Of a DNA stretch of 64,000 nt, positions 20,720-47,289 are shown one piece after another. Position numbers and translations under genes: made by a program. Numbering within the stretch: position 1 is the first letter of the stretch; every line of letters begins with the position of its first letter. The DNA comes from an uncultured Anaerolineales bacterium (GTDB lineage: Bacteria; Planctomycetota; Phycisphaerae; FEN-1346). The notes below the pieces were generated by a model. That model worked only from the letters and a program-made list of their open reading frames with translations. It was not told the origin of the DNA and did no database searches. The stretch is from NCBI GenBank assembly GCA_964526295.1, contig CAZGKW010000012.1, positions 30,643-94,642 of the forward strand, read 5' to 3'.

Positions 20720-21361
20720 CTACGGCTGCTGCTGGTCGGGGGCCGCCCTGGGCCCCTCCGGCGCGTAGCCCAGGCGGGCCAGTTGCTTTCGGGCCCAGCT
20801 CCGCCACCTCGCCCGTTCGTCCTCGTGAAGCACCTGCTCCAGGAGCAGGCAGACCTCGTCGGTCCGGTCGCCGCGGCGGACGAGCGTCCGGGCGAGGTTC
20901 GCCCGGTACTCGATCACGTCGGGGGCGAGTCCGACGGCTTCGCGATAGTAGGCGACCGCCTCGTCGAGCTCGCCGGCCTCCTCGTGGACGAGTCCCAGAT
21001 TGTTCCGGGGCCCGGCGTGCTTGGGCAGGAGCTGACGCGCGTCCTCGAACTCCCAGGCCGCCTTGTGGAAGTCGCCCTGCCGATAGTAGACCTTGCCCAG
21101 GTTGTTGTGGGCCGGTCCGAACTCGACGTCGGCGGTCAGGGCCCGGCGGAACGCCTCGGCGGCCCCCTCCAGGTCGTCCTGGGCGAGGTGCCGGAGGCCG
21201 GCGGCATTGGACTCGCGGGCGGCCTCGGTGTCCCGCCCCGGCTCCGGCCGGATCGTGGCGTAGACACGGGTCGGCGACTGGGCCTTCCACCCCGTCGCAC
21301 AGCCGCCGCCCGCGAGCACCGCGCCCGCCAGGAAGAGACACAACGCGATCTTGCCAGTCAT
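20720..21361 (-). CDS. TPR-repeat outer-membrane lipoprotein (PilF/PilW- or T2SS pilotin-like).
   Basis: Lipobox LAGAVLAGGGC. TPR repeats (..AAEAFRRAL..GPAHNNLGKVYYRQGDFHKAAWEFEDARQL..NNLGLVHEEAGELDEAVAYYREAV). It is the last gene of the minus-strand T2SS array. Confidence 0.6.
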   Translation of the reverse strand: MTGKIALCLFLAGAVLAGGGCATGWKAQSPTRVYATIRPEPGRDTEAARESNAAGLRHLAQDDLEGAAEAFRRALTADVEFGPAHNNLGKVYYRQGDFHKAAWEFEDARQLLPKHAGPRNNLGLVHEEAGELDEAVAYYREAVGLAPDVIEYRANLARTLVRRGDRTDEVCLLLEQVLHEDERARWRSWARKQLARLGYAPEGPRAAPDQQQP

Positions 21362-21371
21362 GGTCGGTCCT

Positions 21372-21905
21372 TCAGATATCGCGTGCCGCCGTCGCGGTCG
21401 GCACGTACATCAGGTAGGTCAGCGTGGCCTCGGCGTCCCAGACGTCGCGGGGGACGTCGCCGTGCGGGATACGAAGCCTGAGGTCGCGGACGCTCAGGCC
21501 CGATTCGGCCGTCAGGTGATGCAGGAACAGCGCCGCCTGGCGAAGCGTCACGCCCCGAATCGCGAGGACCGTGGGCTTCTGGACGTACGGCGTGTTCCCC
21601 AGGCGCCGGGGCGCCTGCGGCAGCACCCCCTCCAGGGCGTCCTTTCCGAGGCCGACCTGACGCGAGGCGGCCTCGATCCGCCGGCCCAGTTCCTGGACGC
21701 CCATGGCCTCGGCCGCGGCGACCGCCGGGGCGTCGCGGAGGGCCCTGATCTCGCCGGCCAGGACCTTGCAGTCGGCCAGGTCGCGGGCCGCCCCGAGGGC
21801 CGTCTCCCGCTGATCGAGCATCCACAGCACGTTCCATGCCGCGGCGATGACGAGCATCGCCAGCATCACGGCGATCAGGATCGCCTGTCTCGCGTGGGCG
21901 GTCAT
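21372..21905 (-). CDS. gspM: T2SS protein M-like (bitopic inner-membrane protein).
   Basis: 177 aa with an N-terminal TM (AILIAVMLAMLVIAAAW). It follows the GspL-like gene, and its start overlaps the GspL stop. Confidence 0.5.
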   Translation of the reverse strand: MTAHARQAILIAVMLAMLVIAAAWNVLWMLDQRETALGAARDLADCKVLAGEIRALRDAPAVAAAEAMGVQELGRRIEAASRQVGLGKDALEGVLPQAPRRLGNTPYVQKPTVLAIRGVTLRQAALFLHHLTAESGLSVRDLRLRIPHGDVPRDVWDAEATLTYLMYVPTATAARDI

Positions 21906-23284
21906 GGGGTACCCCCTTCGCCGGCTGAGGCGGGCCGCGGCCTGGCGGTGAAGAGGAAGCTGACACCCCCCTGCCGCAGGGCCTGGGTCTTCGGGGGCTG
22001 GACCTCGTACCGGCCGGACTGGCGTACGGCGATCGCGACGCCCTCCGCTTCCGCATGGCTGCGGGCCTGGCCGTCCAGACGGATGAAGTCCGGCTGGATG
22101 TTCAGATCCAGGATGCGGTACCGCACGTCGGTGGGGAGGCTGCCCAGCACCTGCCGCAGGTGCTCCAGCGCCGAGGTCGACGCCGCCGCTTCGCTGACGG
22201 ACGCGTCCGATTCGTGTCCGCCGATGCCCGCCAGCTTCCGTTTCTCGCTCAGGAGCCGCCCTCGGGCGCCGGCCCGGGGCACCGGCTGGCCCGGCAGGGC
22301 CTCCTTGCAGACGTCCGTCTGCTCCGCCAGGTACGCCTCGCGCAGCGCCTGGTACCGCCGCCCGCGCCACTGAGCGGCACCCGAGATCGAGACCAGCAGC
22401 AGCACCACGGCCGCCACGAGGGCCCCCAGGGGCCGGCGATACGTCCTCAGCGGGTCGGGGGCGGCCAGTGCGTCGCACCGCAGGTCGATCCACGGCGAGT
22501 CGTCGCCGGCGAGGACCTTCGCCGCATGAAGCGCCGCGGCCCGGTCGCCGCCCAACTCCCGCATCTCGACCCGCTGAAGGCCCTCCGGCACCAGTTCGGC
22601 GGGCCGCGTCGACCCGCCGTCGCCGAGAACGACGACGGGTCCCGGCCGGTCCTCGGACGTGGCCCAGACGGCCAGCCGCTCGCGGACGACCGCGCCGTCG
22701 TGGGCAAACCACCACCAGTCGGCCGGCCTGCCGCTTCGAAGCTCGACCAGGTCGTAGGCGGGGGGGGCGCCGTCCTGCCGGCGCCCCTCGCGTATCAGGA
22801 CCGCGCCGGCGTCCCTGGCATGGCGATCGACCACGTGGGCCGCCGCCAGGAAGGCCCGCGGGCAGACGTGCCTCACGCGGACGCCCGCCGCCTCGAAAGC
22901 GTCGACGACGGGCTCGAGGCGTTCGAGCTGGGCGCAGACGCCGAGGGCCCGGGCGCCGGCGGCGGGGAGGTAATCGGCGACGACCTCCTCAGCCGAGCAC
23001 GGCAGGTGCTCCTCCAAGCGGAACGCCATCCCCCGGCGGCGCGCGCCCCGCTCCAGGCCGTCCGTCGAGATCGCCGCGCACAGACACCACGACGAGGGGA
23101 CCACCAGGGCGATCGGCTGGTCGGCGTGCCCGAGACCCGTCAGCTCCTTCCGGGCCGCCTCGACGCGGCCCTCGGCGGTCGCGTCCGCCCCAAACGGGAC
23201 CTCGGCCAGGTGCACGTCGCCGTCGCGCACGGCCGCCGCGCGCCACGCCTCGTCGCCCAGAAAGACCAGGTAACGGTCGCTCAT
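21902..23284 (-). CDS. gspL: T2SS protein L-like. An N-terminal cytoplasmic actin-like domain, a single TM helix and a periplasmic C-terminal domain.
   Basis: 460 aa with a mid-protein TM (LGALVAAVVLLLVSISGAAQW). Position and architecture match GspL. The start overlaps the upstream stop. Confidence 0.55.
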   Translation of the reverse strand: MSDRYLVFLGDEAWRAAAVRDGDVHLAEVPFGADATAEGRVEAARKELTGLGHADQPIALVVPSSWCLCAAISTDGLERGARRRGMAFRLEEHLPCSAEEVVADYLPAAGARALGVCAQLERLEPVVDAFEAAGVRVRHVCPRAFLAAAHVVDRHARDAGAVLIREGRRQDGAPPAYDLVELRSGRPADWWWFAHDGAVVRERLAVWATSEDRPGPVVVLGDGGSTRPAELVPEGLQRVEMRELGGDRAAALHAAKVLAGDDSPWIDLRCDALAAPDPLRTYRRPLGALVAAVVLLLVSISGAAQWRGRRYQALREAYLAEQTDVCKEALPGQPVPRAGARGRLLSEKRKLAGIGGHESDASVSEAAASTSALEHLRQVLGSLPTDVRYRILDLNIQPDFIRLDGQARSHAEAEGVAIAVRQSGRYEVQPPKTQALRQGGVSFLFTARPRPASAGEGGTP

Positions 23285-23799
23285 GGCCGCGTCCCTCCCC
23301 CCGCAGCCGGTGCGAGGACCAGCTCGATCGTTTCGTCGGCGTACTCGACCGTGACCGTCTGCTGGTCGATCCGCTTGACGGTCACGGCCCCGCCCGCGTC
23401 GTCGACGCTTTGCCCCTCGGCACAGAGCGCGATCGTGCCGTCCTTCTTCTGAAACATCGCCATCGAGTGGCCGGGTTCGTCGACCGTGCCGATCAGGCGG
23501 ACGGTCATGGGGACCTTCGAGGCCCCGCCGGCGACGGGGGCGTCCTGGAGCGGCCGCCGAACGTCCAGTCCGGAGACCCGTTGAAGCTCGGCCAGCTTGG
23601 CCCGGGCCCGCTCGGCCTTCGCCTGCTCCGCGGCCGGGTCCCTGGCGGCGCCGCCGGCCCCCTCGGAGGACGGGACGTCCGGTTCGTCCGGGCCGGTCTC
23701 GAGCGGCACGGCCACCCCTGCCGCCAGCACCGCGACGGCCGCGAGCCCGACGGCCGCGGCGGCCAGTCCGATCGCCCGTTTCCGTTGACGCACGTTCAT
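23281..23799 (-). CDS. Small membrane-anchored periplasmic T2SS accessory protein (GspC/PilP-like position).
   Basis: 172 aa. N-terminal TM (IGLAAAAVGLAAVAVLAAGVAV), then an acidic/Pro-rich linker and a C-terminal beta-rich domain. Sits between the GspK-like and GspL-like genes. Confidence 0.4.
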   Translation of the reverse strand: MNVRQRKRAIGLAAAAVGLAAVAVLAAGVAVPLETGPDEPDVPSSEGAGGAARDPAAEQAKAERARAKLAELQRVSGLDVRRPLQDAPVAGGASKVPMTVRLIGTVDEPGHSMAMFQKKDGTIALCAEGQSVDDAGGAVTVKRIDQQTVTVEYADETIELVLAPAAGGGTRP

Positions 23800-23803: not shown

Positions 23804-24760
23804 TCACCAGGCGAACTCGTATCGGCGGTCGATATCGAGCAGGCGGCCGGATCGGCCCGCCTGGCCGCCCTTCTCGACGCCGCCCTCTCCCACGACCAGC
23901 GTGTGCCAGGACCGCTGCCGGCCCCGGACGATCACCCAGAGGCCGTGGCAGGACGACGCATCGGTCACGCACTCCTGGATCCGCAGTTTCTCGTCGCGAT
24001 CGGCCTTGTCGAGCTCCGCGACCATGGCCGGGAGACTGCGATAGGGGTCGCGGCTTCGCACCTCGAGCAGGGCGGCGACGAGGTCGCGGCCCAGCTCGCC
24101 GCGGCAGGCCAGCTCGACGACGGCGTCCGGGGCCCGCCGCAGGTTCACCTTGCCGTCGCCCCAGCAGGTGATCGCACGGACCAGCCCCGGTCGGCGTCCG
24201 TCGCCGGCCAGCCGCTCCGGCAGGACGCCTTCGAAGACCTGGCCGTAGCCGGCCACCTTCGACAGGTTGCCGGTCTGTCGGGAGAGGCCCTCCCCGAGCG
24301 CGAGGGTCCGAAGCGCCAGGCCGCCCTGCCGGACGAAGCCGCCGCCGGCCTCGGCGATGAGGTGGGCGACCTCGGAACGGGCCTCGCCGCGGCCCATCTC
24401 GTCGACCAGCACGTTCACGTTCAGCTTCGCCTGCTCGTCCGTCACGAGCAGCTCGTAGTCGAGGTCCGCGAGGCGGCAGGCGACACGGCGCTCGACCATC
24501 GGCGGGTTCAGATATCCCTGAGGGCCTGCGACGCCCTCGCCCCGCTCCGCCTCGTCGAGCAGCATCGCGGCCCGCGGCAGGAGCGCCTCGCGGCAGCTCG
24601 CCACGGCCCACCGCCGCTTCAGCTCCTCGACGGCGCCCCGTGCCTCCAGCGCCTCGACCATGCTCCGGCGGGCCATCCCCGCCAGCGAGATGGCCGCCAG
24701 GAGGACGAGCACCAGCACCAGCAGCAGGGCGAAGCCCGATTGTGCCGACCGGCGTCTCAT
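23804..24760 (-). CDS. gspK: T2SS minor pseudopilin K-like.
   Basis: N-terminus MRRRSAQSGFALLLVLVLVLLAAISLAGM resembles GspK leaders. ~318 aa. Follows the J-like gene, with a stop/start overlap. Confidence 0.55.
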   Translation of the reverse strand: MRRRSAQSGFALLLVLVLVLLAAISLAGMARRSMVEALEARGAVEELKRRWAVASCREALLPRAAMLLDEAERGEGVAGPQGYLNPPMVERRVACRLADLDYELLVTDEQAKLNVNVLVDEMGRGEARSEVAHLIAEAGGGFVRQGGLALRTLALGEGLSRQTGNLSKVAGYGQVFEGVLPERLAGDGRRPGLVRAITCWGDGKVNLRRAPDAVVELACRGELGRDLVAALLEVRSRDPYRSLPAMVAELDKADRDEKLRIQECVTDASSCHGLWVIVRGRQRSWHTLVVGEGGVEKGGQAGRSGRLLDIDRRYEFAW

Positions 24761-25752
24761 GTCCGTCCGCCCGATTCGATCATGACGATTCGCTCGCGGG
24801 TCGGCTGGGTCGCGTCGTCCGTCCAGAGGCGAAGCCGCCACACGGTGCCGACCGCCCGCCGACGGGGCGCCTGTTGCCCCTCGGCCGCCCCCCCGATGCC
24901 CCCCTGCCAACCCCCCTCGTCCCGTCCGGCGGGACGGGCCTCAGACGAGCCGGCCCTTCCCCGCCTGGAACCGGCCGGGCCGGCCTCCTCCGAAGTTTCC
25001 TCATCCCCGGAGCGGCCTTCGAGGACCCAGGGGACCAGCTCGATGAAGATCCAGTTGCCGCGGATGCGGACCTGCCCCTCCGGTCCGTCGGCCGGGAACT
25101 CGACGCCCTCTATGCCGGATTCCCTGGGGGGCGCCGAGGTCTTCGCTTCGGCCGGGCCGCGGTTGCCGGGGCCCGCTGCCGCTTCCGGCCCTGCTTCGCT
25201 TGCCGCCTCGGCCTCCTCTGCCTCGACTCCGCCCCCGGCGTCCGTCCCGCCGGTCGTCCCGATCGCGCCGGCGTTGAGCGTCCGTATCTCGCCGGTCCCG
25301 GCCATGCCGCCGAGGCCGATCAGCTCGAACCGCGTGACCCCACAGCAGACGAGGTCGCGCTGCACGTTCTGGTTCGTCAGGACGTCGAGGACGGCCTGGC
25401 GGCGGATGAGCCACGGCCGGCCGTCGATCCTCTCGATCTTGTAGAGCACGAGCACGGGCCGATGCGTCCGCTCGCGGGCCCGTCCATCCAGGGCCCCGTA
25501 GCCCATCAGCACCACCTCGTTGGCCTTGGAGGCGTCGATGCTGTGTGCGTGCGCGAGGTCCTCCCGGAGCAGGCCGACCCAGGCGTCGAGTGCCTCATCC
25601 CCGCCCGCAGCGCCGGCCTCCTCAGCGATGCCTGCCGCGACCTCGGGCGCCCCGAGGTCGGCCACCACCGCCAGGACGCCGATCATCAGGACGGTCGAGA
25701 GGGCCGTGGCCACGAGCAGCTCCAGCAGCGTGAATGCCCGCGCAGTGCTCAC
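24757..25752 (-). CDS. Minor pseudopilin (GspJ-like) with a prepilin-type N-terminus.
   Basis: The GTG start overlaps the upstream TGA (GTGA). Prepilin motif ARAFTLLELLVATALSTVLMIGVLAVV. Confidence 0.6.
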   Translation of the reverse strand: MSTARAFTLLELLVATALSTVLMIGVLAVVADLGAPEVAAGIAEEAGAAGGDEALDAWVGLLREDLAHAHSIDASKANEVVLMGYGALDGRARERTHRPVLVLYKIERIDGRPWLIRRQAVLDVLTNQNVQRDLVCCGVTRFELIGLGGMAGTGEIRTLNAGAIGTTGGTDAGGGVEAEEAEAASEAGPEAAAGPGNRGPAEAKTSAPPRESGIEGVEFPADGPEGQVRIRGNWIFIELVPWVLEGRSGDEETSEEAGPAGSRRGRAGSSEARPAGRDEGGWQGGIGGAAEGQQAPRRRAVGTVWRLRLWTDDATQPTRERIVMIESGGRT

Positions 25753-26201
25753 GGCGTCGCCTCCGGCACGGGGCCCGCTTCCGGGACGGGCCGCACCAGG
25801 TCGACGACCACGAGCGGCCCATCCGGGTCGGCCGACTGCGACGCCCCCATCGTCGACTCGTAGACCTCGACCCGCACGACGCGTGCCCCCAGCCGCTCGA
25901 CCGCCTCGTTCTCGACGAGGCGCGTCCGCCAGGTCAGCGATTCGCCGGTGCCGAGGGTGCCCGATTCGTCGACGGGCACGCCCTCTGGTTCGGCCCACCA
26001 CCCGGCAATCAGGTCGTCGGCCTCGCGGACGGCCATGTGCGTCCGCCGCGCCAGCGCAAGCTGGTGCGTGTGCCGCGCCTTCGCCAGGACGATCCCGACG
26101 AGGATCGCGCCGAGGATGGCGATGGCGGCGACGACCTCAATGAGCGTCAGGCCGCCCCGTCTCGAGCACCGCGAACAGGTTGTCGACTTCGTCGTCTTCA
26201 C
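25749..26201 (-). CDS. Minor pseudopilin (GspI-like).
   Basis: Prepilin motif RRGGLTLIEVVAAIAILGAILVGIVLA. The annotated start overlaps the upstream gene by 65 nt, so the true start is uncertain. Confidence 0.6.
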   Translation of the reverse strand: MKTTKSTTCSRCSRRGGLTLIEVVAAIAILGAILVGIVLAKARHTHQLALARRTHMAVREADDLIAGWWAEPEGVPVDESGTLGTGESLTWRTRLVENEAVERLGARVVRVEVYESTMGASQSADPDGPLVVVDLVRPVPEAGPVPEATP

Positions 26202-26733
26202 AATCGAGCACCATCTGGCCTGTCAGCCCCGCGAAGACCAGCCACCGGCCGTCGCCGCGGCCGGCCGGAGCGCCCCGGGGAGCCGTTCCGGAGCCGGACA
26301 CCAGGCGGAGGGCGTAGCTGGCGCTGCGTCCGGCCGTCGAGCAGGCGACGTCCACCACGCCGGATTCCTTCCCGCGGGCCGCCGGTCCCCCCGGCACCAG
26401 CGCCGAGGAAGCGGCCCGGGCGAAGACGACCCGGTCGATCCTGTGGCCGACCGGCAGGTCCAGGACGTGGCCCGGCATCTCGGTCCCGTCGTCATCGAAC
26501 ACGACCCGGCAGACGACCTGCCGGTCCAGGTCGAAGCGGAGGACGCAGGGCCGGCCCAGGCGTCGGGCGGCGATGCGGGCCCGCCGGTCGGCGTGGGCGA
26601 TCCGGCCCACGGCGTCCTCGCGGGACCACCGCTTCGCCTCGTCGGTCATCGACCAGACCACCGCACCGGCCAGGAGCCCCAGCAGCGCGACGACGGCCAT
26701 GACCTCGATCAGCGTGAAGCCGCCGCGTCGCAC
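26137..26733 (-). CDS. Pseudopilin (GspH-like).
   Basis: MRRGGFTLIEVMAVVALLGLLAGAVVW has the class III signal peptide signature. Confidence 0.65.
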   Translation of the reverse strand: MRRGGFTLIEVMAVVALLGLLAGAVVWSMTDEAKRWSREDAVGRIAHADRRARIAARRLGRPCVLRFDLDRQVVCRVVFDDDGTEMPGHVLDLPVGHRIDRVVFARAASSALVPGGPAARGKESGVVDVACSTAGRSASYALRLVSGSGTAPRGAPAGRGDGRWLVFAGLTGQMVLDCEDDEVDNLFAVLETGRPDAH

Positions 26734-26736
26734 GGG

Positions 26737-27180
26737 CTACTCCTCCACCTCTCGGGCATGTCCAAGTACGTCGGCGACCTGCCAGGAATAGACGTCGGCG
26801 TTCATCCCGTCGCCACCCTCGCGGCCGTCCGCCCCGAAGCTGATGACCTCGAAGGGGCCCTTCCGCCCGGGGCTGTTGTACTGGTAGGGGTTGCCCCAGG
26901 GGTCGAGGCGGGTCTTGATGGGGAGGTCGTCGAGGCCTTCCTCGTTGGTCGGATAGCGGCTGTGGGTCAGGTAGAACGTTTCGATGGCCCGCTCGATGGT
27001 GGCGATATCCGACTTCGTCCGGTTCACCTTGGCGGTGTCCATGTAGCCGGTGACCTTGAGGGCCACGGCGCCGGCCAGCAGGCCGATGATCACCACGACA
27101 ACCATCACCTCGATGAGCGAGAACGCGGCACGTCTCCGACCGCCTCCCATGGGGCGTCCAGGGCGTGACCGGCGGGCCAT
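26737..27180 (-). CDS. gspG: Major pseudopilin, type II secretion system protein G.
   Basis: RRRAAFSLIEVMVVVVIIGLLAGAV matches the GspG N-terminus. Conserved ..TKSDIATIERAIETFY..GRYP..L..L...L.DPWGNPYQY.. The start is chosen at the M with an AGCAGGA RBS; alternatives are 27201 and 27150. Confidence 0.85.
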   Translation of the reverse strand: MARRSRPGRPMGGGRRRAAFSLIEVMVVVVIIGLLAGAVALKVTGYMDTAKVNRTKSDIATIERAIETFYLTHSRYPTNEEGLDDLPIKTRLDPWGNPYQYNSPGRKGPFEVISFGADGREGGDGMNADVYSWQVADVLGHAREVEE

Positions 27181-27190
27181 GTCCTGCTTT

Positions 27191-32445: not shown

Positions 32446-32492
32446 TGACCACCCCTCGACGTTCGTGAAAAGGGGCCGCTCGGCCCCGGTCC

Positions 32493-35986: not shown

Positions 35987-36036
35987 GGTTCGACCTCCAG
36001 GTCTTGCCGCCTCGGGCGGCCGCACGCGCCTCCGAT

Positions 36037-36675
36037 TCACGCCACCGCTCTGTGCCCGCGCGAATGCCCATGAAGCTTCTGTGCACAGACGGTCTCGAGG
36101 TGGGTCAGGAACGCCTTGTACCGTTCGTGCTTTCGGGTCAACTGGTACTGGAAGAAAAGGCCCGGCAAGGCGATGACCAGGCCCGTCTCGGTGGTGACCA
36201 GGGCCTCGGAGATGCCCTCGGCCACCAGGCCCATGGTCTTGTCGCCGCCGGAACCGGTGGCCAGGGCGGAGAAGGTGGCCAGCATCCCGGTGACGGTGCC
36301 CAGCAGGCCGAGAAGCGGGGCCCCGCCGACGCAGATCCGCATGACGCGGAGGTCCCGCTCGAACGGGGCAATCTCGGTGGTGCGAAGCTCCTCGAACACG
36401 GCGGCGCTTTCGCGGAGCGACCTGCCGCCCACCGCAAAGTCGAGCAGCTCGCCGATCGGGCCCTGCCGCTCCTCGGGATGGTCGATCCAGCGGCGCCAGG
36501 TCTTCTCCGGCACGGACTGGAACCCCTTCTCCTGGAGCTTCAGATGGACGTGCATCCCCATGGCGAACATGACGAGGGCCATCGCGGCGATGCCGATCAT
36601 GGCCCACCCCCCGGAGAGCCAGATGGCGTAGGCCTGGTGCCAGAGGGCCCTGAGATGTTCGAGGATCACGTCCAT
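36037..36675 (-). CDS. exbB: MotA/TolQ/ExbB proton channel (short form).
   Basis: Three TM helices and the MotA_ExbB core (ICVGGAPLLGLLGTVTGMLATFSALATGSGGDKTMGLVAEGISEALVTTETGLVIALPGLFF). An alternative start lies at 36720. Confidence 0.85.
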   Translation of the reverse strand: MDVILEHLRALWHQAYAIWLSGGWAMIGIAAMALVMFAMGMHVHLKLQEKGFQSVPEKTWRRWIDHPEERQGPIGELLDFAVGGRSLRESAAVFEELRTTEIAPFERDLRVMRICVGGAPLLGLLGTVTGMLATFSALATGSGGDKTMGLVAEGISEALVTTETGLVIALPGLFFQYQLTRKHERYKAFLTHLETVCAQKLHGHSRGHRAVA

Positions 36676-36760
36676 GTCGGTTATGCCTTTCCGGCCCCGC
36701 CCTTCGGGGCCGCGCCTCATCCGGTCAGCGGCGGCCGCGACACCGCCGGTCTCCGGTCGC

Positions 36761-39241: not shown

Positions 39242-42200
39242 TCACCAGGAGAAGTGGGCGCTGAGGCCCACCGAGTAATCGATGCCCTTGTGAAAGGAGG
39301 TCTTGGTCACGTCTTCTCCGATGAAGTCGGACCGGTAGACGGTCTCGATCTCCGGGTCGGTGAGGTTCTTGGCCTTGAACGACAGCGTGAGGTAGTCGCC
39401 GAGCTTCTGGGACACGCTGACGTTGAGCGTGCCGAACTCGGTCGCGTAGACGCTGGGCACGAAGCGCCCGCTGGCCTGCCCGGCCCCGGCGACCAGGGTG
39501 TCGCCGCGGACCGTGTAGAAGACCGCGAATCGCGTCCCGGTGGGCCCCAAGTCGTAGGTCATAAAGAGATTATAGATATACTCGGGAGCATTTGTCATGT
39601 CGCGGGTCAGCACGGGGACGCCCAGGAGCTCCTCGAGCTCGGCCGCCTCGTCCGGGGGCAGGATGACCTCCGAGTCGATGAACGTGGCGTTGGCCCCGAC
39701 CGTCAGGCCGTTGAGCTCGCGTACGAAGTGGCCCAGGTGCTGCCGGGCCTCGACCTCGACCCCCCTCAACCTGCCGCGGGTGAAGTTGCGGGGGGTCGTG
39801 TAGGTGAACAGGCTGGCCACCCGCTGGACGTTCTCGATGGGATCGACGACTCGCTTGTCGAAGTAAGAGACCGAGAACAGCCCCCCCGCGTAGGGCTCGT
39901 AGTCGAACCGCAGGTCGTAGTTCTCCAGGGCGCTCATCCGCAGGCCCGGGAACCCGATGAAGATGTCGCCCCCGAGAAACTCCTGCTGGAGGATCGGCGA
40001 GAGCTCCCGGAACGTCTGGCGGGCCACCGTCTCGGTGTACGAGCCCCGGAGCGTGATCTCCTTGAGCGGCGCGAAGACGAAGCCGATCGCGGGCAGCACG
40101 TCGCCCTGCTGAAACGCCACATCCGGCCCGTCCGGGAACAGGCCCGGGGTCAGCTTGATCCCGACGCTCGCCCCCGGCGGGAACCACGTCGCGTCCTCTT
40201 CGGCGGTGTTGACGATGGTCAGCTCGGTTTCCTCGTACCGGGCCCCGCCGATCACCTTCAGCATCGAGAACAGGGGGAAGTCCACCATCCAGTACCAGGC
40301 CGAGATGTGCTGGTCCCCCCGGTAGTCGACGTCCACGAAGGGGGGGCCGTCCTTGATGGTGGGGACGCCGCCCTGCTCCTCGAGCAGGTCCGGATAGGCG
40401 GCGCTGTAGGACGCCTCGAACGGGGCGTCCCGGAGGCGCGGGGCCTGCGGGTCGCCCGTGTCTCGCAGGTTGCTGAAGCTGTTCTGGTCGAACGTCCGGG
40501 CCACCTCGTCCTCGAACACGCCGAACCTGACGTATCCCTCGTCACCGGTCCACTGTCGGAAGGGGAACTTGACGTTGATGGCGTGCTGCTCGCTCTCTTC
40601 CTCGATTTCCTTCCAGATCCGCTGGATGTTGCCCAACCGGAAGTTGGCCCCCGGCTTGACCGGGAAGTGCTCCGACCTGGTGACGAACGGGGGAACGAAC
40701 GGCGGGAACCCCGGATTGAACGACGGGGCGACCCACCCGCCGCCGAACTGCCGCTTGTCCGGCTGAAACATGTCGGCCGTGCTTCGGGCGACGAACCAGT
40801 CCACCTCCGGGGACAGGGCCCTGAACACGTCCACCTTCCCCACCTCGGGGACGGGCAGCCTGTGGTGCCCGTGGAGCTGAAGCGTCTCGGTGGTCCGCTC
40901 GGTGTAGGCCAGCGTCTCGTTCCGGCGATAGGCCGCCAGGGCCTTGCTCTGGGTGGAGTTGCCCGGGTGGCTCGGATCGTCCGGGTCGTACACCGGGACG
41001 TCGCCGAACGCCGGAAAGAAGAACTCCTTGCCCCGGGTGTCTTCGGCAAGCGTCGCGACGTCCTCGGCGATACGGGTATAGAGATAGACGAGGTTGAGCG
41101 AGTGGTTCTCGGTCTCGACGCCGACGGCCCCGAGGGCCCCCCACTGGACCTCCTCCTTGGCCTGTGTGACGTCGTAGAGCTTCGTGAAGAGATCGCCCCG
41201 GGCGGGCGGGTTGTACGGGTCGTCCGGGTCCCAATCGCCCTGGACGGTTCCCTGGGTGGTCTGCGGCATCAGCCGCTGCTCGCCGGCCTGTTCCTGAAGC
41301 TGATACCGGTCGTCGATCCCGTCCTCGTAGTACGAGGCATCCCGCTTATAGAAGAGGCTGGTATAGCCGCCGACCGTCAGGCCGGTCTTGAAGGCCCGCC
41401 TCCCGCCGGCGGCAAACGACCAGTCATATTCCCGCGGCGCCTCGTCGAGGGAGGTGCCCAGGGCCCCGCCGAACTCGCCGGGCGCCGGTATCGGCACATC
41501 CTGCCGGGCCCACGTCGGCACCCCGCCGCCCCGGTACGTGAGGAACTCGTCCCCGGCATCCCTGACCTGGGTGTTGAAGCTGTAGCCCCCGCCGAACTTC
41601 AGGATGGTCTCGTCCGGAATGCCCTTCAGAACGATGTTGACGGCGCCGCCGGAGGCGTCGCCCTGCTGGTCCGGCGTGAAGGTCTTGCTGACCAGGAGGG
41701 CCTCGATCACCGCGGCCGGAAACTGGTCGAGCTGAACGGCCCGCTTCTCGGCGTCGGCGGTCGGCAGCCGACACCCGTTCATCTGCGAGTTCACGTACCG
41801 GTCCGGCAGGCCCCGGATCACCGCGAACTTGCCCTCCTGGACGCTGGCCCCCGCCACCAGCTGGACGGCGTCGGCCGCATCGCTGGCCCCGGCGTCTTTC
41901 ATCAGCTCGCTGCTGATCCCGGTGACGAACGCCGCTTCCCCGCGGCGAAGCTCGAGGACCTGGAGCTCCGTCCCGGCCTCGAACGAGATGTCCTGGACGA
42001 CGAACTCGTCCATCTCGGTGAAGTCGCCCCCCATCCAGGCGTTGGCCTCGACGATCTGCCCCGGCGGCACCACCACGTCGCCCCGGACCTGCCGGGTGAA
42101 GCCCGGCTTCGAGAAGATCAGCGTGTACGTGCCCGGCTCGACCTGAGGAAAGACGTAGTTGCCCTCCGGAGCGGTGGTGGCTTTCTGGCTGGTCTCGACG

Positions 42201-42346
42201 ATGGCAACCCGGACCTCCCCCAGTGGCGTGTTAAACGCCTTGTCGTACACCACGCCGCGCAGGGAGCCCGCCTGCTGGGCCGAAGCGGTCGCCGCCAGAC
42301 AGAGCAACGCCCCCAGAGCAGCCCATCCCGCCGATAGCCGTGTCAC
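39242..42346 (-). CDS. TonB-dependent outer-membrane receptor with an N-terminal carboxypeptidase-regulatory-like domain.
   Basis: Signal peptide VTRLSAGWAALGALLCLAATASA and a CarbopepD_reg-like domain (GSLRGVVYD..GNYVFPQVEPGTYTLIFSKPGF). Plug domain (..AVIRGLPDRYVNSQMNGCRLP..) and a ~800 aa barrel ending ..SAHFSW. The GTG start overlaps the upstream TGA. It is nested in a 1331-aa GC-artifact ORF. Confidence 0.8.
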   Translation of the reverse strand: MTRLSAGWAALGALLCLAATASAQQAGSLRGVVYDKAFNTPLGEVRVAIVETSQKATTAPEGNYVFPQVEPGTYTLIFSKPGFTRQVRGDVVVPPGQIVEANAWMGGDFTEMDEFVVQDISFEAGTELQVLELRRGEAAFVTGISSELMKDAGASDAADAVQLVAGASVQEGKFAVIRGLPDRYVNSQMNGCRLPTADAEKRAVQLDQFPAAVIEALLVSKTFTPDQQGDASGGAVNIVLKGIPDETILKFGGGYSFNTQVRDAGDEFLTYRGGGVPTWARQDVPIPAPGEFGGALGTSLDEAPREYDWSFAAGGRRAFKTGLTVGGYTSLFYKRDASYYEDGIDDRYQLQEQAGEQRLMPQTTQGTVQGDWDPDDPYNPPARGDLFTKLYDVTQAKEEVQWGALGAVGVETENHSLNLVYLYTRIAEDVATLAEDTRGKEFFFPAFGDVPVYDPDDPSHPGNSTQSKALAAYRRNETLAYTERTTETLQLHGHHRLPVPEVGKVDVFRALSPEVDWFVARSTADMFQPDKRQFGGGWVAPSFNPGFPPFVPPFVTRSEHFPVKPGANFRLGNIQRIWKEIEEESEQHAINVKFPFRQWTGDEGYVRFGVFEDEVARTFDQNSFSNLRDTGDPQAPRLRDAPFEASYSAAYPDLLEEQGGVPTIKDGPPFVDVDYRGDQHISAWYWMVDFPLFSMLKVIGGARYEETELTIVNTAEEDATWFPPGASVGIKLTPGLFPDGPDVAFQQGDVLPAIGFVFAPLKEITLRGSYTETVARQTFRELSPILQQEFLGGDIFIGFPGLRMSALENYDLRFDYEPYAGGLFSVSYFDKRVVDPIENVQRVASLFTYTTPRNFTRGRLRGVEVEARQHLGHFVRELNGLTVGANATFIDSEVILPPDEAAELEELLGVPVLTRDMTNAPEYIYNLFMTYDLGPTGTRFAVFYTVRGDTLVAGAGQASGRFVPSVYATEFGTLNVSVSQKLGDYLTLSFKAKNLTDPEIETVYRSDFIGEDVTKTSFHKGIDYSVGLSAHFSW

Positions 42347-43596
42347 CACGGTGGCCCCAATCCCTCGAGAATCTCGCGCAAACGGGTCTCGAACTCGGCG
42401 TCCGGCTCCACGCCGTCCAGCGCCATCGAACGGCAGGCGGCGGAGAGGTCCTCGGCCCGAGGCCGGGCATTGGGGTTCTCGGCCCCGACTTCCACGGCCT
42501 TCCGGTAGACCTCCAGCGCCCGTTCCGTGGCCCCCATCGCCCGGTACGCCTCCGCCACCGACAGGAGCACGCTTGCCCGGTCGGTCGTCAGGACCTTCTT
42601 CCGCTCCGGCTCGAACCTCGCGAGCGCGGCCCCCACGTCGGCGCGGGCCCGGTCTTCGTCGCCGGCCCGGAACCGAAGCCCCGCCACGCGGGCACGCACC
42701 GGGATGCCGTACTGAGGCGGCCAGGAGACGCTTTCCACCCGCTCCTCGGTCTCCTCCACCAGCGCCAGGGCATGGGGCCGGTCCTCGTGTGCCAGGGCCG
42801 CGCCCACCAACGCCTCGAAGACGTCCACCTGGACCTGGCCCGGCATGCGGACGAGGCCGGCCCGGACCTTCTCCTCCACCAGCGATCGGCGCTGCGGGTC
42901 GTCGTAGAAGCGGTCGTAGAGCTCGACGTATGCCGCCAGCGCATTCCGGATGACATCGAAGTGGCCGGATGCGATGGCCGCGTCCAGCCGTTCCACCTGC
43001 TGCTGGAAGGCCTCGTCGTCGGCCAGCATCGCCCGGATGCGATCGACCTTGCCCTGTTCGGCCGGGGGCGCGCCGGCCTCGAGCCGCCGGGCCTCCTCGT
43101 CCCGGCCGAGCCAGGCCTGCGTCTGGGCCATCTTGACCCGTATGCGGCCCTGGCGCCAGTCCTGCTCGTCCTCGGCGAGCTTGGCGGCCACCTCCAGGAA
43201 ACGGCCCGCCTCGTCGGTGTGCCCGTTGCGAGCGCAATAGAGCGCGAGGTCGGCATAGGCCAAGCCCCGGCGCCAGTTGACGATCTGCTTCGTGTAGTCG
43301 AGGGCCCGCTCGGGCTGCCCGAGTTCCAGACAGGCCCTCACGACCTCCTCCTGCTGCCGGGAACGGTCCTTGACGTGCGGCTGGACCGGGAGCGCCGTCG
43401 CCGCCTCAAACGCCAGGTCGAGCAGTTCCGTGCGGTACGGCTCGACCGGCTTGTCGGCCATCGGCTCGGAGGCCGGGGCGGTCTCGGACGGCACCGGCCC
43501 TTCCTGGCCGGGCCCGTCGGCGGACTGAGGGGCGCAGCCGCCCACCCAGAGCACACCGCCCACCAGCAGGAGAAACGTTCGCAGCGCAGTCTGCAT
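42343..43596 (-). CDS. Helical-repeat (TPR-like) lipoprotein.
   Basis: Lipobox LLLVGGVLWVGGC. Alpha-helical repeats. The stop overlaps the TBDR start. Confidence 0.5.
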   Translation of the reverse strand: MQTALRTFLLLVGGVLWVGGCAPQSADGPGQEGPVPSETAPASEPMADKPVEPYRTELLDLAFEAATALPVQPHVKDRSRQQEEVVRACLELGQPERALDYTKQIVNWRRGLAYADLALYCARNGHTDEAGRFLEVAAKLAEDEQDWRQGRIRVKMAQTQAWLGRDEEARRLEAGAPPAEQGKVDRIRAMLADDEAFQQQVERLDAAIASGHFDVIRNALAAYVELYDRFYDDPQRRSLVEEKVRAGLVRMPGQVQVDVFEALVGAALAHEDRPHALALVEETEERVESVSWPPQYGIPVRARVAGLRFRAGDEDRARADVGAALARFEPERKKVLTTDRASVLLSVAEAYRAMGATERALEVYRKAVEVGAENPNARPRAEDLSAACRSMALDGVEPDAEFETRLREILEGLGPPW

Positions 43597-43685: not shown

Positions 43686-45614
43686 CTACAGAGGAAGGAC
43701 CCGGTAGAGCTTCGTCCCGTCGAAGCCCGCGAGGTCCTGGATGCAGATCTCGCCGCCGGTGCCCTCGACCACCTTGAAGGGGGCCCAGTCCGTGCCGTCG
43801 TCCGAGACCTCAATCTGGTACCACGTGCCGTCCTCGGTGTCGAAGCAGACCACGGTGAACTTCAGCTCCAGCTCCTGGGGCGGGGCGGCCACAACGTCGC
43901 CGTCCGGAGCGCCGAAGAACCCGAAGGCGTCGGCCGCCGTCCAACCCCGGGCCCAGTTGTGGTCCGGGCTGAACGCCCCGCGGAAAGGCGTGTTCGTGAA
44001 GAACCCGCAGACCGGCTCGTCGTCGATGTTGAACGTTGCCGCGCTGACGGCGTCGTTGGCGGCCCGCGGGTCGATGGTGACGACCGGGAACATGATTTTC
44101 CCGCCGCGGGTCACGCCGGGGTCCCCGTCGCCGTCGGCGTCGCTGAAGTCGCGGGTCAGGGCCGCGATGGGCATGTTGTCGTCCGGGCTGCCCACGTTGA
44201 ACGAGGCGACCACGTTGTTCTTGGCCGGGTTGCTGCCGCCGCCCACCGTCACGCCGCGGGCGTCCGACTCGGTGTAGGCCCCGGCGGCCAGGTTGCGGAA
44301 GAACACGCTGTCGACGATCTCGGCGAGCTTGCCGGAGGTCTGGGCCGCGTAGATCGCCATCAGTTCGGGCTGGGTGAAGCCGGGACCGATGGGGGGGACC
44401 ATGTTCGCGTGACCGCCCGTCAGGACGTTGGCCGGGTTGTAGACCTCGCTCCAGTCGGTCGTCCAGGTGGCGGCCCACGACAGGGTGCCGTTATGGCCGT
44501 ACCCGTTGGCCCCGTCGCCGTCGATGTTGTCGAACTGGACCAGCCCGGCGCCCAGGTCCATCCAGATACACTTACGGTACTGGATGCGGCAGTTGTCGCG
44601 CCAAGCGGTCCCGCCGTCGCCGTCGCCGGGCTGGCCGACGACGGTGGCGTTATAGATGACGGCGGTCGTGCACGGCTGGAAATCGGAGTCCTCGGCCCCG
44701 TCATGCTCGAAGCAGTTGTCGCCGACACCGGAGCCCTGGCTGTCGTCGACGCTGTAGCCCTGGACGATGAAGATGAACTGGGCCTTGCCTCGCCAGCCCT
44801 GGTCCAGGTCGAAGGTGTCGTCGCCGATGTTCCAGATGGTGCAGTACTTCAGCTCGACCGTGCCGCCCCAGATCTCGATGCCGTCGTCGACGTTGTTCAT
44901 GACGTCGACGTGGTTGATCTCGGTCTCGCGGCCGACGCCGCCGAGCGAGAAGCCGTTCAGCTCGTCGTTGAGGCCGATGACCCGTCCGCCGTAGCGGAGC
45001 GACAGATACTGGATGGTGCCGCTGTTGTCATCGTCCATGTTACCGCCGTACCGCGTGTCGGGGTCGCCGACGAACCCGGGGACCAGGCCTTCCATGTCGG
45101 CCTCGTTGCCGGCGGCGGGATAGGGCACGTTGCCGGGGACGGCGTCCTCGGCGATGTAGCCCTTGCCCATGATGGCGATGCTGCCCCACTCGTTGGCGGC
45201 CTCACGCCAGGTGCCGGTCTTGGGGTCGCCGACGGTGTCGATGACGCCGGCGTTGACGACGCTGCCGGTCCACGTCGCGACGTCCTGGTTGGTGGTGAAG
45301 ATGACCGGCTCCTGGGCGGTGCCGAGGACGTAAAGGCGGCTGCCGCGGGTGATGGCGAGGCTGCCCGCCCCGCCGCCCGTCGCCGTGCTGGCCACGAGCG
45401 TGCCGGCCTCGATGGTCAGCGTGGCCCCGTTCTTCACGACGGTCGAGGCGGTCAGGTCGTAGACGTTGCGGACGCCTGCGGTCTCCTTGGTCCAGACCTC
45501 GGAGACGGTGATGTCACCCGACTTCGGGATGATGTTGACGGCCGCGCCGGCCGTCCCGGCCATGGCGAAACCGATCGCCAGAACCAGCAGAGCTGCTTTT
45601 CTGAAGGCTTTCAT
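43686..45614 (-). CDS. Large secreted protein of unknown function (beta-rich, Asp/Gly-rich; possible beta-helix).
   Basis: Signal peptide MKAFRKAALLVLAIGFAMAGTAGAA. No recognisable catalytic motif. It is the first gene upstream of the lipoprotein/TBDR/TonB block. Confidence 0.4.
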   Translation of the reverse strand: MKAFRKAALLVLAIGFAMAGTAGAAVNIIPKSGDITVSEVWTKETAGVRNVYDLTASTVVKNGATLTIEAGTLVASTATGGGAGSLAITRGSRLYVLGTAQEPVIFTTNQDVATWTGSVVNAGVIDTVGDPKTGTWREAANEWGSIAIMGKGYIAEDAVPGNVPYPAAGNEADMEGLVPGFVGDPDTRYGGNMDDDNSGTIQYLSLRYGGRVIGLNDELNGFSLGGVGRETEINHVDVMNNVDDGIEIWGGTVELKYCTIWNIGDDTFDLDQGWRGKAQFIFIVQGYSVDDSQGSGVGDNCFEHDGAEDSDFQPCTTAVIYNATVVGQPGDGDGGTAWRDNCRIQYRKCIWMDLGAGLVQFDNIDGDGANGYGHNGTLSWAATWTTDWSEVYNPANVLTGGHANMVPPIGPGFTQPELMAIYAAQTSGKLAEIVDSVFFRNLAAGAYTESDARGVTVGGGSNPAKNNVVASFNVGSPDDNMPIAALTRDFSDADGDGDPGVTRGGKIMFPVVTIDPRAANDAVSAATFNIDDEPVCGFFTNTPFRGAFSPDHNWARGWTAADAFGFFGAPDGDVVAAPPQELELKFTVVCFDTEDGTWYQIEVSDDGTDWAPFKVVEGTGGEICIQDLAGFDGTKLYRVLPL

Positions 45615-45672: not shown

Positions 45673-46320
45673 TCAGGCGCCTGGTTGCCTGCGACGACGG
45701 GCGGCCAGCAGACCGCCACCAGCCAGCAGCAGCACGAGCGTAGCCGGCTCCGGGGCCGTCATGTGGATGGCGGAGAAGTTCCCCGCGGGAAACGGCTCGA
45801 CCCCGACGATGTCGAGCAGGCCTCTGGCCTGGTTGTCGCCGGGGGGAAGCCCCGGGTCCCAGGTGAGGCAGCCGAACGGCTGGTTCGGGCCCGGCTCGGT
45901 CGCGGCCAGGTCAAGGCCCGGGAACCAGTACAAGCTCACCGGCGTGTTGACCGGGATGCCGTCGAGCGGGAACTCGTACTGCCGGGAAATGAGCCAGGAA
46001 TCGTTCCCGCCTTCCTCGGTAGTTCCCGTGACCTCGTCCCACTCGATGACCGGCCCGGCGCCGAGGATCTGCCCGGCGATGATCATGTCGTCCAGATCGA
46101 GATTGAACGTGTCCGTGGGGCCCTTGTTGACCAGCCACTGGGCGCACCCGTCGCCGTCGAGGTCGAGCGTGGCGATCGTCAGGGTCGGCTGGGACAGCAG
46201 CACCCCGTTTTCGTCCTTGAGGCCGTTGGTGCTGGTGACCTGGATCGCGACGTTCGCGTGGGCCGTCGCACCGGCCAGCAGGACGACACCGACACAAGCT
46301 AATGCGATTTTCTTCATCAC
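45673..46320 (-). CDS. PEP-CTERM-anchored secreted protein (exosortase substrate).
   Basis: Signal peptide. C-terminal PEP-CTERM: ..MTAPEPATLVLLLAGGGLLAARRRRQPGA*. Confidence 0.75.
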   Translation of the reverse strand: MMKKIALACVGVVLLAGATAHANVAIQVTSTNGLKDENGVLLSQPTLTIATLDLDGDGCAQWLVNKGPTDTFNLDLDDMIIAGQILGAGPVIEWDEVTGTTEEGGNDSWLISRQYEFPLDGIPVNTPVSLYWFPGLDLAATEPGPNQPFGCLTWDPGLPPGDNQARGLLDIVGVEPFPAGNFSAIHMTAPEPATLVLLLAGGGLLAARRRRQPGA

Positions 46321-46338
46321 TTTATCCTCCCAAGTTCG

Positions 46339-47289
46339 TCAGTAAGGTTTGACGGCCGAAACCACACCTCCGGCGTCGCCGTTCTGCCGGAAGATGAAAC
46401 CGCCCGCCCCGTCGATGTCCGGCGGCGCCGGCGCCCACACGGTCCCAACCCAAGAGGCAATCTGCCCGACCTTGAACTGCCCGACGCCGCTGTTGTCGAA
46501 CACCACCACCTGGCGTCCGGGGACGGTGCCCAGACCGGTCAGCAGCACCGGCAGGTCAACCGGATACCCGGGGCCGATCAGGATGTCCTTGACCGCGCCG
46601 GCGGGAAGGACGCGCTTGACCTTGTAGTCCGGCGTCGTGCCGGCCAGGAACAGCGTCAACGTCTTCGTGGTGCTGCCGTTACGAAGAATGAACGCCGAAT
46701 CCGGCTCCAACGTCATGGTGTCGGCAATCCCGGCGCCGATGAACTGGTCGGCGGCCTGGATGTACGTGAAAATCTGGCCCAGCTTGAACTGCTGATTGGC
46801 CGCGTTGTTGAACAACAGGACCTGCGTGCCGTTCAGGTACGACGTGCCGAGCATGCTGGGCGGAAACACGTCGCGGACTTTGCGGTGCTTGTAGATCCGG
46901 AACGAGTCGCCGTTGCCCACCAGGGCGGCCAGGGCGGCGTTCCCAATGGTCAGATCGTTGTCCGTGTGGCCGATGATGGTGCTCCAGGCCCCTTCCGGAC
47001 CGGCCGAGCCGCCGCTGATGAAGCGGACGTAGAACGTCTGCTCGCCGCCGCGACCGTAATCCTTGCCGGCCAGGGCCCCGCCGGTCAGCGGCAGGGACGT
47101 GCCGGCCGGCGCCCCGTTGACCGTCAACGTCTCCTCGATCACCGGATTGAACGGGTAGGAAACCATGACGTCCGTCTGGGGCGGCGCCGTGATGACTTTC
47201 AACCCCGGCGGTACGGCCGCCAGGCCCGCCGACTGGATGGCCAGCACCAGCAGCACGACGGCCGCCGTTGCACTTGCCTTGCTCCTCAT
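46339..47289 (-). CDS. Secreted protein with an internally duplicated domain (unknown function).
   Basis: Signal peptide MRSKASATAAVVLLVLAIQSAGLAA. Internal repeat FNNAANQQFKLGQIFTYI / FDNSGVGQFKVGQIASWV. Confidence 0.45.
   Translation of the reverse strand: MRSKASATAAVVLLVLAIQSAGLAAVPPGLKVITAPPQTDVMVSYPFNPVIEETLTVNGAPAGTSLPLTGGALAGKDYGRGGEQTFYVRFISGGSAGPEGAWSTIIGHTDNDLTIGNAALAALVGNGDSFRIYKHRKVRDVFPPSMLGTSYLNGTQVLLFNNAANQQFKLGQIFTYIQAADQFIGAGIADTMTLEPDSAFILRNGSTTKTLTLFLAGTTPDYKVKRVLPAGAVKDILIGPGYPVDLPVLLTGLGTVPGRQVVVFDNSGVGQFKVGQIASWVGTVWAPAPPDIDGAGGFIFRQNGDAGGVVSAVKPY

Follow-up and report, generated by a model that had tools for sequence, protein, structure and literature searches.

A TonB2-type transport module and a type II secretion system arranged as one tight gene array in a clade of Phycisphaerae

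Why should a TonB-dependent transport module and a type II secretion system (T2SS) follow one another on a single strand with barely a gap between them? The question is raised by a stretch of 64,000 nucleotides (hereafter the window; contig CAZGKW010000012.1 of assembly GCA_964526295.1, positions 30,643 to 94,642 of the forward strand) from an uncultured bacterium deposited as Anaerolineales and placed by GTDB in the Planctomycetota (Phycisphaerae, FEN-1346). Little is understood of how planctomycetes take up polymers across the outer membrane, and T2SS export is usually studied, and encoded, apart from TonB-dependent uptake; a clade that carries both systems in one likely transcription unit is a natural test of the co-regulation of export and import. 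The array is probably best explained as an operon fusion of single origin that co-expresses two self-sufficient envelope systems. Its components are of known kinds; the arrangement of TonB module and T2SS is new and confined to one clade. A preliminary description of the window had called this arrangement undescribed, and we too found no account of a TonB2-type module fused to a T2SS in the open-access literature searched, where absence is no proof of novelty.

The window has ~70% G+C and its raw lists of open reading frames (ORFs) consist mostly of artefacts, so reading frames were picked by G+C content at third codon positions (GC3). Gene identities were assigned from Pfam and NCBIfam profile matches, with the NCBIfam equivalog cutoffs. 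We identified 25 genes across 20720-47289, all co-oriented on the minus strand and numbered g01 to g25 in the order of transcription (Table 1), with GC3 of 0.82-0.95 against second-position values of 0.42-0.62, a coding-type signature. They are bounded by a convergent plus-strand VTT/DedA gene (19915-20718) and a divergent plus-strand gene (47847-49475). The preliminary description had counted about 26 minus-strand genes without a strand switch; the co-oriented block stands with a count of 25, and the gene order given there is the one recovered with Pfam and NCBIfam. The tight spacing reported there, with at least ten overlaps, is also seen here: neighbouring genes overlap at ten of the 24 junctions (by 4 bp in seven cases, as ATGA or GTGA, and by 1, 11 and 65 bp in the others), and four gaps exceed 50 bp (54, 58, 89 and 136 bp, the last being the maximum). 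The array comprises two modules, a TonB2/TonB3-type module A (g03-g13) and a T2SS module B (g14-g25). Rfam and tRNA scans of the window returned zero RNA genes.

Both modules occur elsewhere without the other. A metagenome scan anchored on the long TtpC-like ExbB protein of module A yielded 80 further loci. No secretin was found in the 35 loci that have at least 2.5 kb of sequence past the last tetratricopeptide repeat (TPR) gene; two loci (L113 and L117) run on into a T2SS, and L114, which stops after ExbD, looks like the upstream half of a linked locus. Annotated contexts in a Brocadiaceae genome, an Omnitrophica metagenome-assembled genome (MAG), two further contigs, Kuenenia stuttgartiensis and Sedimentisphaera salicampi share the order Beta_helix_4, TPR, Oar-class transporter, DUF3450, TtpC, ExbB, ExbD, TonB, TPR. 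Where these annotated loci extend beyond the last TPR gene, unrelated genes come next; the Sedimentisphaera locus and the fetched Kuenenia locus end within that gene and inform on module content only. In 11 of the 35 unlinked loci the half that encodes the beta-helix protein, TPR lipoprotein and transporter is placed differently with respect to the energiser half, or on the opposite strand, but is still nearby. Halves that remain together even when permuted indicate that g03-g13 form one functional, self-contained unit. Module A proteins (window 32493-45614, compared with loci L081-L166) share 45-80% identity across Phycisphaerae, Brocadiales (Kuenenia and another Brocadiaceae) and one Omnitrophica MAG. 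Judged by these matches, module A is spread across at least two phyla and mostly does not lie beside a T2SS. No published description of a module made up of a beta-helix protein, a TPR lipoprotein, an Oar-class transporter and a TonB2-type energiser was found in the literature searched. This cross-phylum module deserves a study of its own, and its substrate is possibly more important than the fusion itself.

A second scan, anchored on the GspD secretin profile with one genome per GTDB species, gave 80 loci with 10 kb flanks, against which all 25 window proteins were searched with tblastn. All loci apart from the linked ones (described below) keep the g14-g25 unit without any module A gene upstream. 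Some 45 planctomycetal T2SS loci for which 3 kb or more of upstream sequence is available have this unit behind unrelated genes, among them loci of other Phycisphaeraceae, Tepidisphaerales (including Fontivita) and Pirellulales (Stieleria, Roseiconus, Rubripirellula and Mariniblastus). The genes before gspD in these unlinked loci include DUF1800/DUF1501 pairs, DUF1573, UbiD, NicO/DsbD-like, GH28 and DsbD_N genes. The spacers before gspD in the unlinked loci checked are mostly at least 200 nt long, and a gene abuts gspD in at least one (L026). GspE is 71-81% identical to that of the window in linked loci and at most 65% identical in all others. Read from its neighbourhoods, the T2SS is an autonomous unit that normally begins at gspD. 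A general T2SS-associated TPR gene upstream of gspD was also considered and rejected, as a TPR protein occupies this place in only one unlinked locus. In three Pirellulales-type loci (L037, L040 and L041) gspD is immediately preceded by a co-oriented DUF1501 gene, with a DUF1800 gene before that in L040; ORFs comparable in size stand upstream in several other Pirellulales loci.

The junction between the two modules is shared. The order TonB, TPR protein, secretin is collinear on one strand in 19 related loci; the gaps are short in 18, and a 3.8 kb insert is present in the other. This synteny speaks against the fortuitous adjacency that the preliminary description had allowed for. In 17 of the secretin-anchored loci gspD is preceded on its own strand by at least the g13 TPR gene, and in the 14 of these 17 with enough flanking sequence the module can be followed back to the transporter. 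Linked loci are Phycisphaerae-type MAGs or unlabelled metagenome contigs, plus a few third-party annotation records labelled otherwise. In a neighbour-joining tree of concatenated GspE and GspF from 60 loci, in which the linked loci are those with both proteins complete, the window and the linked loci form one clade in 100 of 100 bootstraps, and L006 nests within it. This single clade implies one fusion event followed by vertical retention. The clade has since diverged considerably, with identities to the window of 43-59% for GspD, 38-57% for TonB and 39-59% for the TPR protein. The gspD start nonetheless lies close behind the TPR stop codon: ~20 nt in L003, L113 and L117, 28 nt in L170 and 46 nt in the window, with gaps from about -4 to about 100 nt in most linked loci. 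L170 has a whole 24-gene version of the array, with 18 nt from gspD to gspE. Outside the array this conservation ends. The proteins that flank it in the window match no locus, the 600-1200 nt past g25 show no relation between any of 10 linked loci other than one close pair, and the upstream neighbours vary (a DUF748-like gene in the window, UvrC in L168). With outer flanks unconserved, the unit of conservation is the 25-gene block itself.

How the block is transcribed can be judged from its spacers. In several species the ~20-30 nt at the junction leave no space for an independent promoter, and expression of the two modules would therefore be at least coupled. Scans for consensus promoters and terminators found no sites in the intergenic spacers, with counts near those of shuffled controls, and such scans are uninformative for a planctomycete. 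The g03-g04 spacer, which holds a perfect stem-loop just past the g03 stop codon, is the only spacer with a significant fold (z = -4.5; 0 of 200 shuffles fold equally well). This hairpin may be an attenuator, or a stabiliser of the mRNA or its 3' end, that raises expression of g01-g03 over that of the downstream genes. A shorter GC hairpin followed by U4 lies in the g13-g14 spacer. We did not accept it as a module-boundary terminator, since it is real but unconserved in relatives, several of which have just ~20-45 nt at the junction; it is possibly a partial attenuator. The preliminary description had named strong terminators between the modules as a sign of independent units, and no strong conserved terminator separates them. 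We infer read-through transcription with species-specific attenuation.

Several observations weigh against a fusion retained for co-expression. The terminator-like hairpin in the window sits exactly at the module junction, and the spacer after gspD is GC-rich and 136 nt long, though not significantly structured, so that transcription may be segmented. Neighbour joining of the concatenated module A proteins gives a tree with star-like inner branches in which unlinked loci are placed among linked ones, and monophyly of the linked loci is not supported by module A; this tree was not used for or against multiple fusions. Two loci point to tolerance of an opposite-strand gene between the modules. 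In L013 (6341-9804) a 676-aa gene and an opposite-strand GT2 glycosyltransferase gene make up the 3.8 kb insert, and the L013 T2SS must therefore have its own promoter; in L006 (706-1899) an opposite-strand GT2 gene lies directly before gspD, upstream sequence being too short to show module A, and an insert of this kind is probably tolerated there too. Finally, retention in one clade cannot by itself tell selection for co-expression from operon inertia.

One alternative is that the adjacency is functionally neutral: a single rearrangement set two unrelated operons head-to-tail, the arrangement persists since a tight array is rarely broken without cost, and what is secreted has no link with what is imported. 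A junction of single origin, modules that each stand alone in many lineages, a junction that can be interrupted (in L013 and probably L006) and the lack of a carbohydrate-active enzyme (CAZyme), SusD-like protein or regulator gene joining the modules would all be expected under neutrality. However, the outer flanks were reshuffled in the same genomes that retained the inner junction, the clade has diverged considerably, and spacers too short for a promoter at the junction leave expression at least coupled. We regard neutral adjacency as somewhat unlikely.

Under the preferred explanation, a co-expressed fusion of two self-sufficient systems that would each work by their established mechanism, the Oar-class transporter in the outer membrane would be energised by the proton-motive force through a TtpB(DUF3450)-TtpC-ExbB-ExbD-TonB-TtpD(TPR) complex, the energy opening its plug, with the beta-helix exoprotein and a TPR lipoprotein as its constant partners. 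The GspE ATPase would drive a GspG-K pseudopilus on a GspF/L/M/C platform and so push folded periplasmic proteins through the GspD secretin, whose assembly the PilW/Tgl-like TPR lipoprotein g25 probably aids. In the ancestor of one Phycisphaerae clade, module A together with the clade-specific g01 and g02 would have been placed directly upstream of gspD, and the 25 genes then inherited as one block, with read-through as the most likely main mode of transcription. Secretion and TonB-dependent transport would hence be switched on together: the T2SS would export exoproteins, possibly g01 and g03, and the transporter would import the released products, with no physical contact between the machines needed. 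The payoff would be coordinated acquisition of nutrients at the cell surface. If the adjacency means co-regulation and nothing further, the locus is of use as a rule for annotation and as a case of operon fusion, and does not represent a new machine.

A more demanding possibility is that the modules are interdependent parts of a device that secretes and captures, in which the T2SS exports g01 and g03, g02 is anchored at the surface by an exosortase, the exoproteins bind or cut a polymer and the transporter imports the products. The three leading proteins carry signal peptides and are encoded in the same array. Homologues of g01 lie immediately upstream of the beta-helix gene in three linked-clade loci, L169 (40% identity), L168 (34%) and L114 (27%), and g01 has no tblastn match in L165, L166 or the remaining TtpC-anchored loci. 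Positional counterparts of g02 are found in L169 (207 aa, 38% identity) and L168 (186 aa, with a weak PEP-CTERM match and no tblastn match). Homologues of one or the other thus stand upstream of g03 in L114, L168 and L169 and were detected solely in linked-clade loci; tblastn was negative for g01 and g02 in the other TtpC-anchored loci and in the Kuenenia and Sedimentisphaera loci. Phycisphaerae are, moreover, CAZyme-rich polysaccharide degraders (PMC11131199).

The beta-helix protein g03 is 50-58% identical to proteins of Kuenenia, Brocadia, Sedimentisphaera and Omnitrophica, and by this recurrence is a conserved partner of the transporter module. A PDB sequence search gave no match. An AlphaFold2 model built from 25 homologues (mean pLDDT 76, pTM 0.78) had no match in the PDB at E <= 0.001 by Foldseek; its weak matches (E >= 0.01, TM score ~0.2) are right-handed beta-helix tailspike depolymerases, capsule and other polysaccharide lyases, alginate epimerases and GH55 enzymes. 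The search with the model supports the predicted fold class of g03 and not any enzyme activity. Although these weak neighbours are of a fitting kind, no significant enzyme match or catalytic motif was found for g03, the beta-helix protein is equally conserved beside the transporter in genomes without an adjacent T2SS, the array is without a CAZyme domain, and T2SS cargo cannot be predicted from sequence. Interdependence for secretion and capture is unlikely. Quite unlikely is the bolder form in which T2SS-delivered g01 and g03, exosortase-anchored g02 and the TPR lipoprotein assemble on the Oar-class transporter as a TonB-powered polymer-harvesting complex that needs both modules; if true, such a complex would be a planctomycetal analogue of Sus-like systems with the secretion machine built into the locus.

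The transporter may instead be an exporter, so that the locus would encode two secretion routes in parallel, the T2SS and an Oar-class transporter that exports a protein (for example the beta-helix protein), by analogy with Oar of Myxococcus, which is required for PopC export. The transporter g05 has the Oar-defining CarboxypepD_reg extension, the array has two ExbD genes as in the Ton(Oar) cluster (PMC6434023), and an exported beta-helix protein is the invariant neighbour of the transporter across phyla. However, only one Oar-class transporter has been linked to export and most proteins with this domain are assumed to be importers, and PopC, the Myxococcus substrate, is without a signal peptide while g03 has a classical one. 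A dual secretion locus is very improbable.

Mechanical coupling, with the TonB/ExbBD motor or the TPR protein g13 gating or assembling the secretin as the preliminary description had suggested, is unsupported and hardly credible: secretin N0 domains, one of which is present in this GspD, do resemble the signalling domain of TonB-dependent receptors (PMC4098917), the TonB-like ExeB of Aeromonas is a secretin-binding protein on which secretin assembly depends (PMC4098917), and a few T2SS substrates require the proton-motive force (PMC6434023), but the TonB module including g13 is conserved without a downstream secretin in at least 35 loci, ~45 T2SS loci have no adjacent TonB module, the T2SS carries its own candidate assembly lipoprotein in the PilW/Tgl-like g25, and g13 is the counterpart of TtpD, a protein that Vibrio needs for siderophore uptake through TonB2 (PMC6957404). 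A role for g13 as bridge or adaptor to the secretin is likewise unsupported. This protein is a companion of the TonB module and in no case of the T2SS: it was found in every module locus with or without a T2SS downstream and had no tblastn match (E <= 1e-5) upstream of unlinked T2SS loci. What survives of the export-plus-import device proposed earlier is a looser partnership through co-regulation, which is plausible.

Table 1. Genes and spacer hairpins of the array, in the order of transcription (positions in the window; scores are from Pfam or NCBIfam).
Feature	Position	Strand	Description
g01	46339..47289	-	316 aa, secreted, signal peptide; first gene of the array; no Pfam match
g02	45673..46317	-	214-aa PEP-CTERM protein, signal peptide; PF07589 E 1.6e-5
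g03	43686..45614	-	642-aa exported protein, Beta_helix_4 (PF28492; precomputed annotation); classical signal peptide
Stem-loop	43619..43661	-	g03-g04 spacer, just past g03 stop codon; perfect 20-bp stem, 3-nt loop
g04	42343..43596	-	417-aa TPR lipoprotein; lipobox ...WVGG|C; TPR matches
g05	39242..42346	-	1034-aa Oar-class TonB-dependent transporter, 22-strand-type barrel; Pfam
g06	38336..39187	-	DUF3450, TtpB-like; PF11932 8e-32
g07	36761..38317	-	518-aa TtpC-like long ExbB; PF01618 residues 349-469
g08	36037..36720	-	ExbB; PF01618
g09	35657..36040	-	127-aa small membrane protein; GC3 0.82; no Pfam match
g10	35217..35630	-	ExbD; PF02472 2e-25
g11	34779..35195	-	Second ExbD, tandem paralogue; PF02472 4e-23
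g12	34082..34768	-	TonB; TonB_C 1.3e-15
g13	32493..34085	-	530-aa TPR lipoprotein, TtpD-like; lipobox LAG|C; closes TonB module; TPR matches
GC hairpin + U4	32468..32487	-	46-nt g13-g14 spacer; GGGGCC-GAGC-GGCCCC-UUUU, 6-bp stem
g14	30230..32446	-	GspD secretin, 738 aa; N0 PF21305, four Secretin_N PF03958, Secretin PF00263
g15	28405..30093	-	GspE ATPase; TIGR02533 641 bits, cutoff 630 (passes)
g16	27191..28405	-	GspF; T2SSF x2; TIGR02120 317 bits, below cutoff
g17	26737..27201	-	GspG major pseudopilin; TIGR01710 115 bits, cutoff 89 (passes)
g18	26137..26733	-	GspH-like minor pseudopilin; N_methyl motif; GspH top match 5e-8, below cutoff
g19	25749..26201	-	GspI-like minor pseudopilin; GspI top match 8e-6, below cutoff
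g20	24757..25752	-	331-aa pseudopilin, GspJ by position; sole match the N-terminal prepilin motif
g21	23804..24760	-	GspK-like; NF037980 9e-13, below cutoff
g22	23281..23799	-	GspC-like, 172 aa; NF041515 GspC_delta 9e-6, below cutoff
g23	21902..23284	-	GspL-like; TIGR01709 3.6e-14, 52.7 bits, cutoff 65
g24	21372..21905	-	177-aa protein with a single transmembrane segment; GspM by position, size and topology; no Pfam match
g25	20720..21361	-	213-aa TPR lipoprotein, PilW/Tgl-like; TPR matches; top NCBIfam matches PilW, GltE and Tgl, below cutoff

Module A contains the six-gene set TtpB(DUF3450)-TtpC-ExbB-ExbD-TonB-TtpD(TPR) in order, the match to the Vibrio proteins being one of domains and gene order. 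The transporter g05 has CarboxypepD_reg (PF13620, residues 26-100), Plug (PF07715, 138-232) and barrel (PF00593, 641-993) domains; its top NCBIfam match, TonB-Xanth-Caul, is below cutoff, and a PDB sequence search gave no match. A candidate TonB box, MDEFVVQ, was spotted by eye at about residue 112, between the N-terminal extension and the plug. The transporter gene adjoins the DUF3450 gene g06 on its upstream side, 54 nt away, which is the receptor-first order of the TonB3 variant, and the TPR lipoprotein g04 has counterparts of 34-57% identity near the transporter in most module loci. In g07 a periplasmic N-terminal region of ~300 aa precedes a MotA_ExbB domain confined to the last third, and the protein is 60-70% identical in Phycisphaerae, Brocadiaceae and Omnitrophica. 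The small protein g09, encoded between exbB and the tandem exbD pair, resembles the N-terminal part of TonB (a transmembrane and a Pro-rich segment without the C-terminal domain) and has a tblastn match inside the gene at the TonB position of L083. Two ExbD copies are present in 7 of 18 linked loci as compared to 3 of 35 unlinked loci.

Two features of module A relatives were seen in passing. Many TtpC-like homologues (for example P0123, P0124 and P0126, and locus L084) have a C-terminal CBS domain fused to MotA_ExbB, which the window copy is without; in those lineages the fusion may be a sign that the energiser senses nucleotides or ions. In the Brocadiaceae locus L081 (15848-21473), genes for a phosphate-selective porin (Porin_O_P), a PstS-like binding protein and PstC-type permeases come after the TonB module.

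Module B is, on its profile matches and gene order, a divergent, essentially complete T2SS. The top match of GspD, TIGR02517, scores 315 bits against a cutoff of 351, and an independent gene call gave the identical 738-aa product. The gene that the preliminary description had listed as an accessory, g22, is present and has GspC as its top match. For g24 the chosen frame has a GC3 of 0.92, compared with 0.49 for the overlapping longest ORF, and a 172-aa counterpart occupies the same position in L170. That longest ORF (21358-22056) was rejected as GspM: it is an out-of-frame artefact rich in Arg, Pro and Gly, with G+C by codon position of 0.91/0.76/0.49, and it gives spurious tblastn matches in close high-GC relatives. 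The TPR lipoprotein g25 closes most of the planctomycetal T2SS loci examined that have enough downstream sequence and is probably a secretin assembly factor. No Peptidase_A24 match, which would mark a prepilin peptidase (GspO/PilD), was found among the window ORFs scanned; this enzyme may be encoded elsewhere in the genome, a common situation.

The rest of the window is distinct from the array. A plus-strand cluster at 3-17965 encodes likely exported carbohydrate-active proteins, with CHB_HEX_C/PA14 domains, FG-GAP repeats and a pectate-lyase/RHGA-like beta-helix protein (10167-12092), followed by components of an ABC sugar transporter, including a permease (13672-15246) and a solute-binding protein (16130-17965). 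The preliminary description had proposed GH55-like and PA14 proteins as neighbouring T2SS substrates, but these are encoded at 3-12092, on the plus strand and outside the array, and CAZyme-like genes of this kind were not seen beside the array in relatives (10 linked loci with at least 600 nt after g25). Adjacent ParB and ParA genes on the minus strand (60692-62648) suggest that the window may lie near the chromosomal origin region. A ~3 kb segment (~49500-52450) has a G+C of 0.62 as compared to ~0.70 and contains no ORF with the GC3 signature of the genome and no Pfam, tRNA or Rfam match.

Among known systems, module A is closest in layout to the TonB2 and TonB3 systems of Vibrio. The Vibrio vulnificus tonB2 operon is ttpB-ttpC-exbB-exbD-tonB-ttpD, in which TtpD is the TPR-rich product of the last gene, and TtpB and TtpD are both needed for TonB2-dependent siderophore uptake (PMC6957404); the tonB3 operon starts with an outer-membrane receptor gene (PMC6957404). 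Genes g05-g13 match in order and domains, with a receptor, DUF3450/TtpB, long TtpC-type ExbB, ExbB, ExbD, TonB and a TPR-rich last gene, and, as they reproduce this architecture, g13 would be the expected terminal component of a Ton module. Unlike the Vibrio systems, the receptor here is of the Oar class with a CarboxypepD_reg extension, the phylum differs, and the window adds a beta-helix exoprotein, a TPR lipoprotein, a second ExbD and a TonB-N-like mini-gene. The Oar subclass is defined by this extension, and Oar of Myxococcus xanthus is required for the export of the protease PopC in a manner dependent on TonB and the proton-motive force (PMC6434023). The window resembles Oar and its Ton(Oar) cluster in the combination of CarboxypepD_reg extension, Plug and barrel and in having ExbB, two ExbD and TonB (PMC6434023); in contrast, the Ton(Oar) cluster is without TtpB, TtpC and TtpD, and no adjacent T2SS is reported for it (PMC6434023). 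A TonB-related protein is tied functionally to the T2SS secretin in the Aeromonas ExeAB (GspAB) system (PMC4098917). ExeB, however, serves secretin assembly only and has neither ExbBD nor a TonB-dependent transporter with it, unlike the complete and independently conserved Ton system with its own receptor in the window.

Module B follows the canonical Gsp/Eps/Xcp T2SS of Proteobacteria, with GspD, E, F and G and then H-, I-, J-, K-, C-, L- and M-like components in the usual order. It differs in that components other than GspE and GspG do not reach their family cutoffs, the GspC-like protein is, at 172 aa, a short one, the array has no prepilin peptidase, and a terminal PilW/Tgl-type TPR lipoprotein replaces a GspS-type pilotin or GspAB. 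In the carbohydrate utilization (CUT) loci of Xanthomonas and the polysaccharide utilization loci (PULs) of Bacteroidota, a TonB-dependent transporter is co-regulated with secreted glycan-degrading enzymes, and these loci encode CAZymes, regulators and inner-membrane transporters but not a secretion machine. Profile scans of the 25 array genes were negative for CAZyme, SusD and regulator domains. Like CUT loci and PULs, the array encodes an outer-membrane importer together with proteins that act outside the cell.

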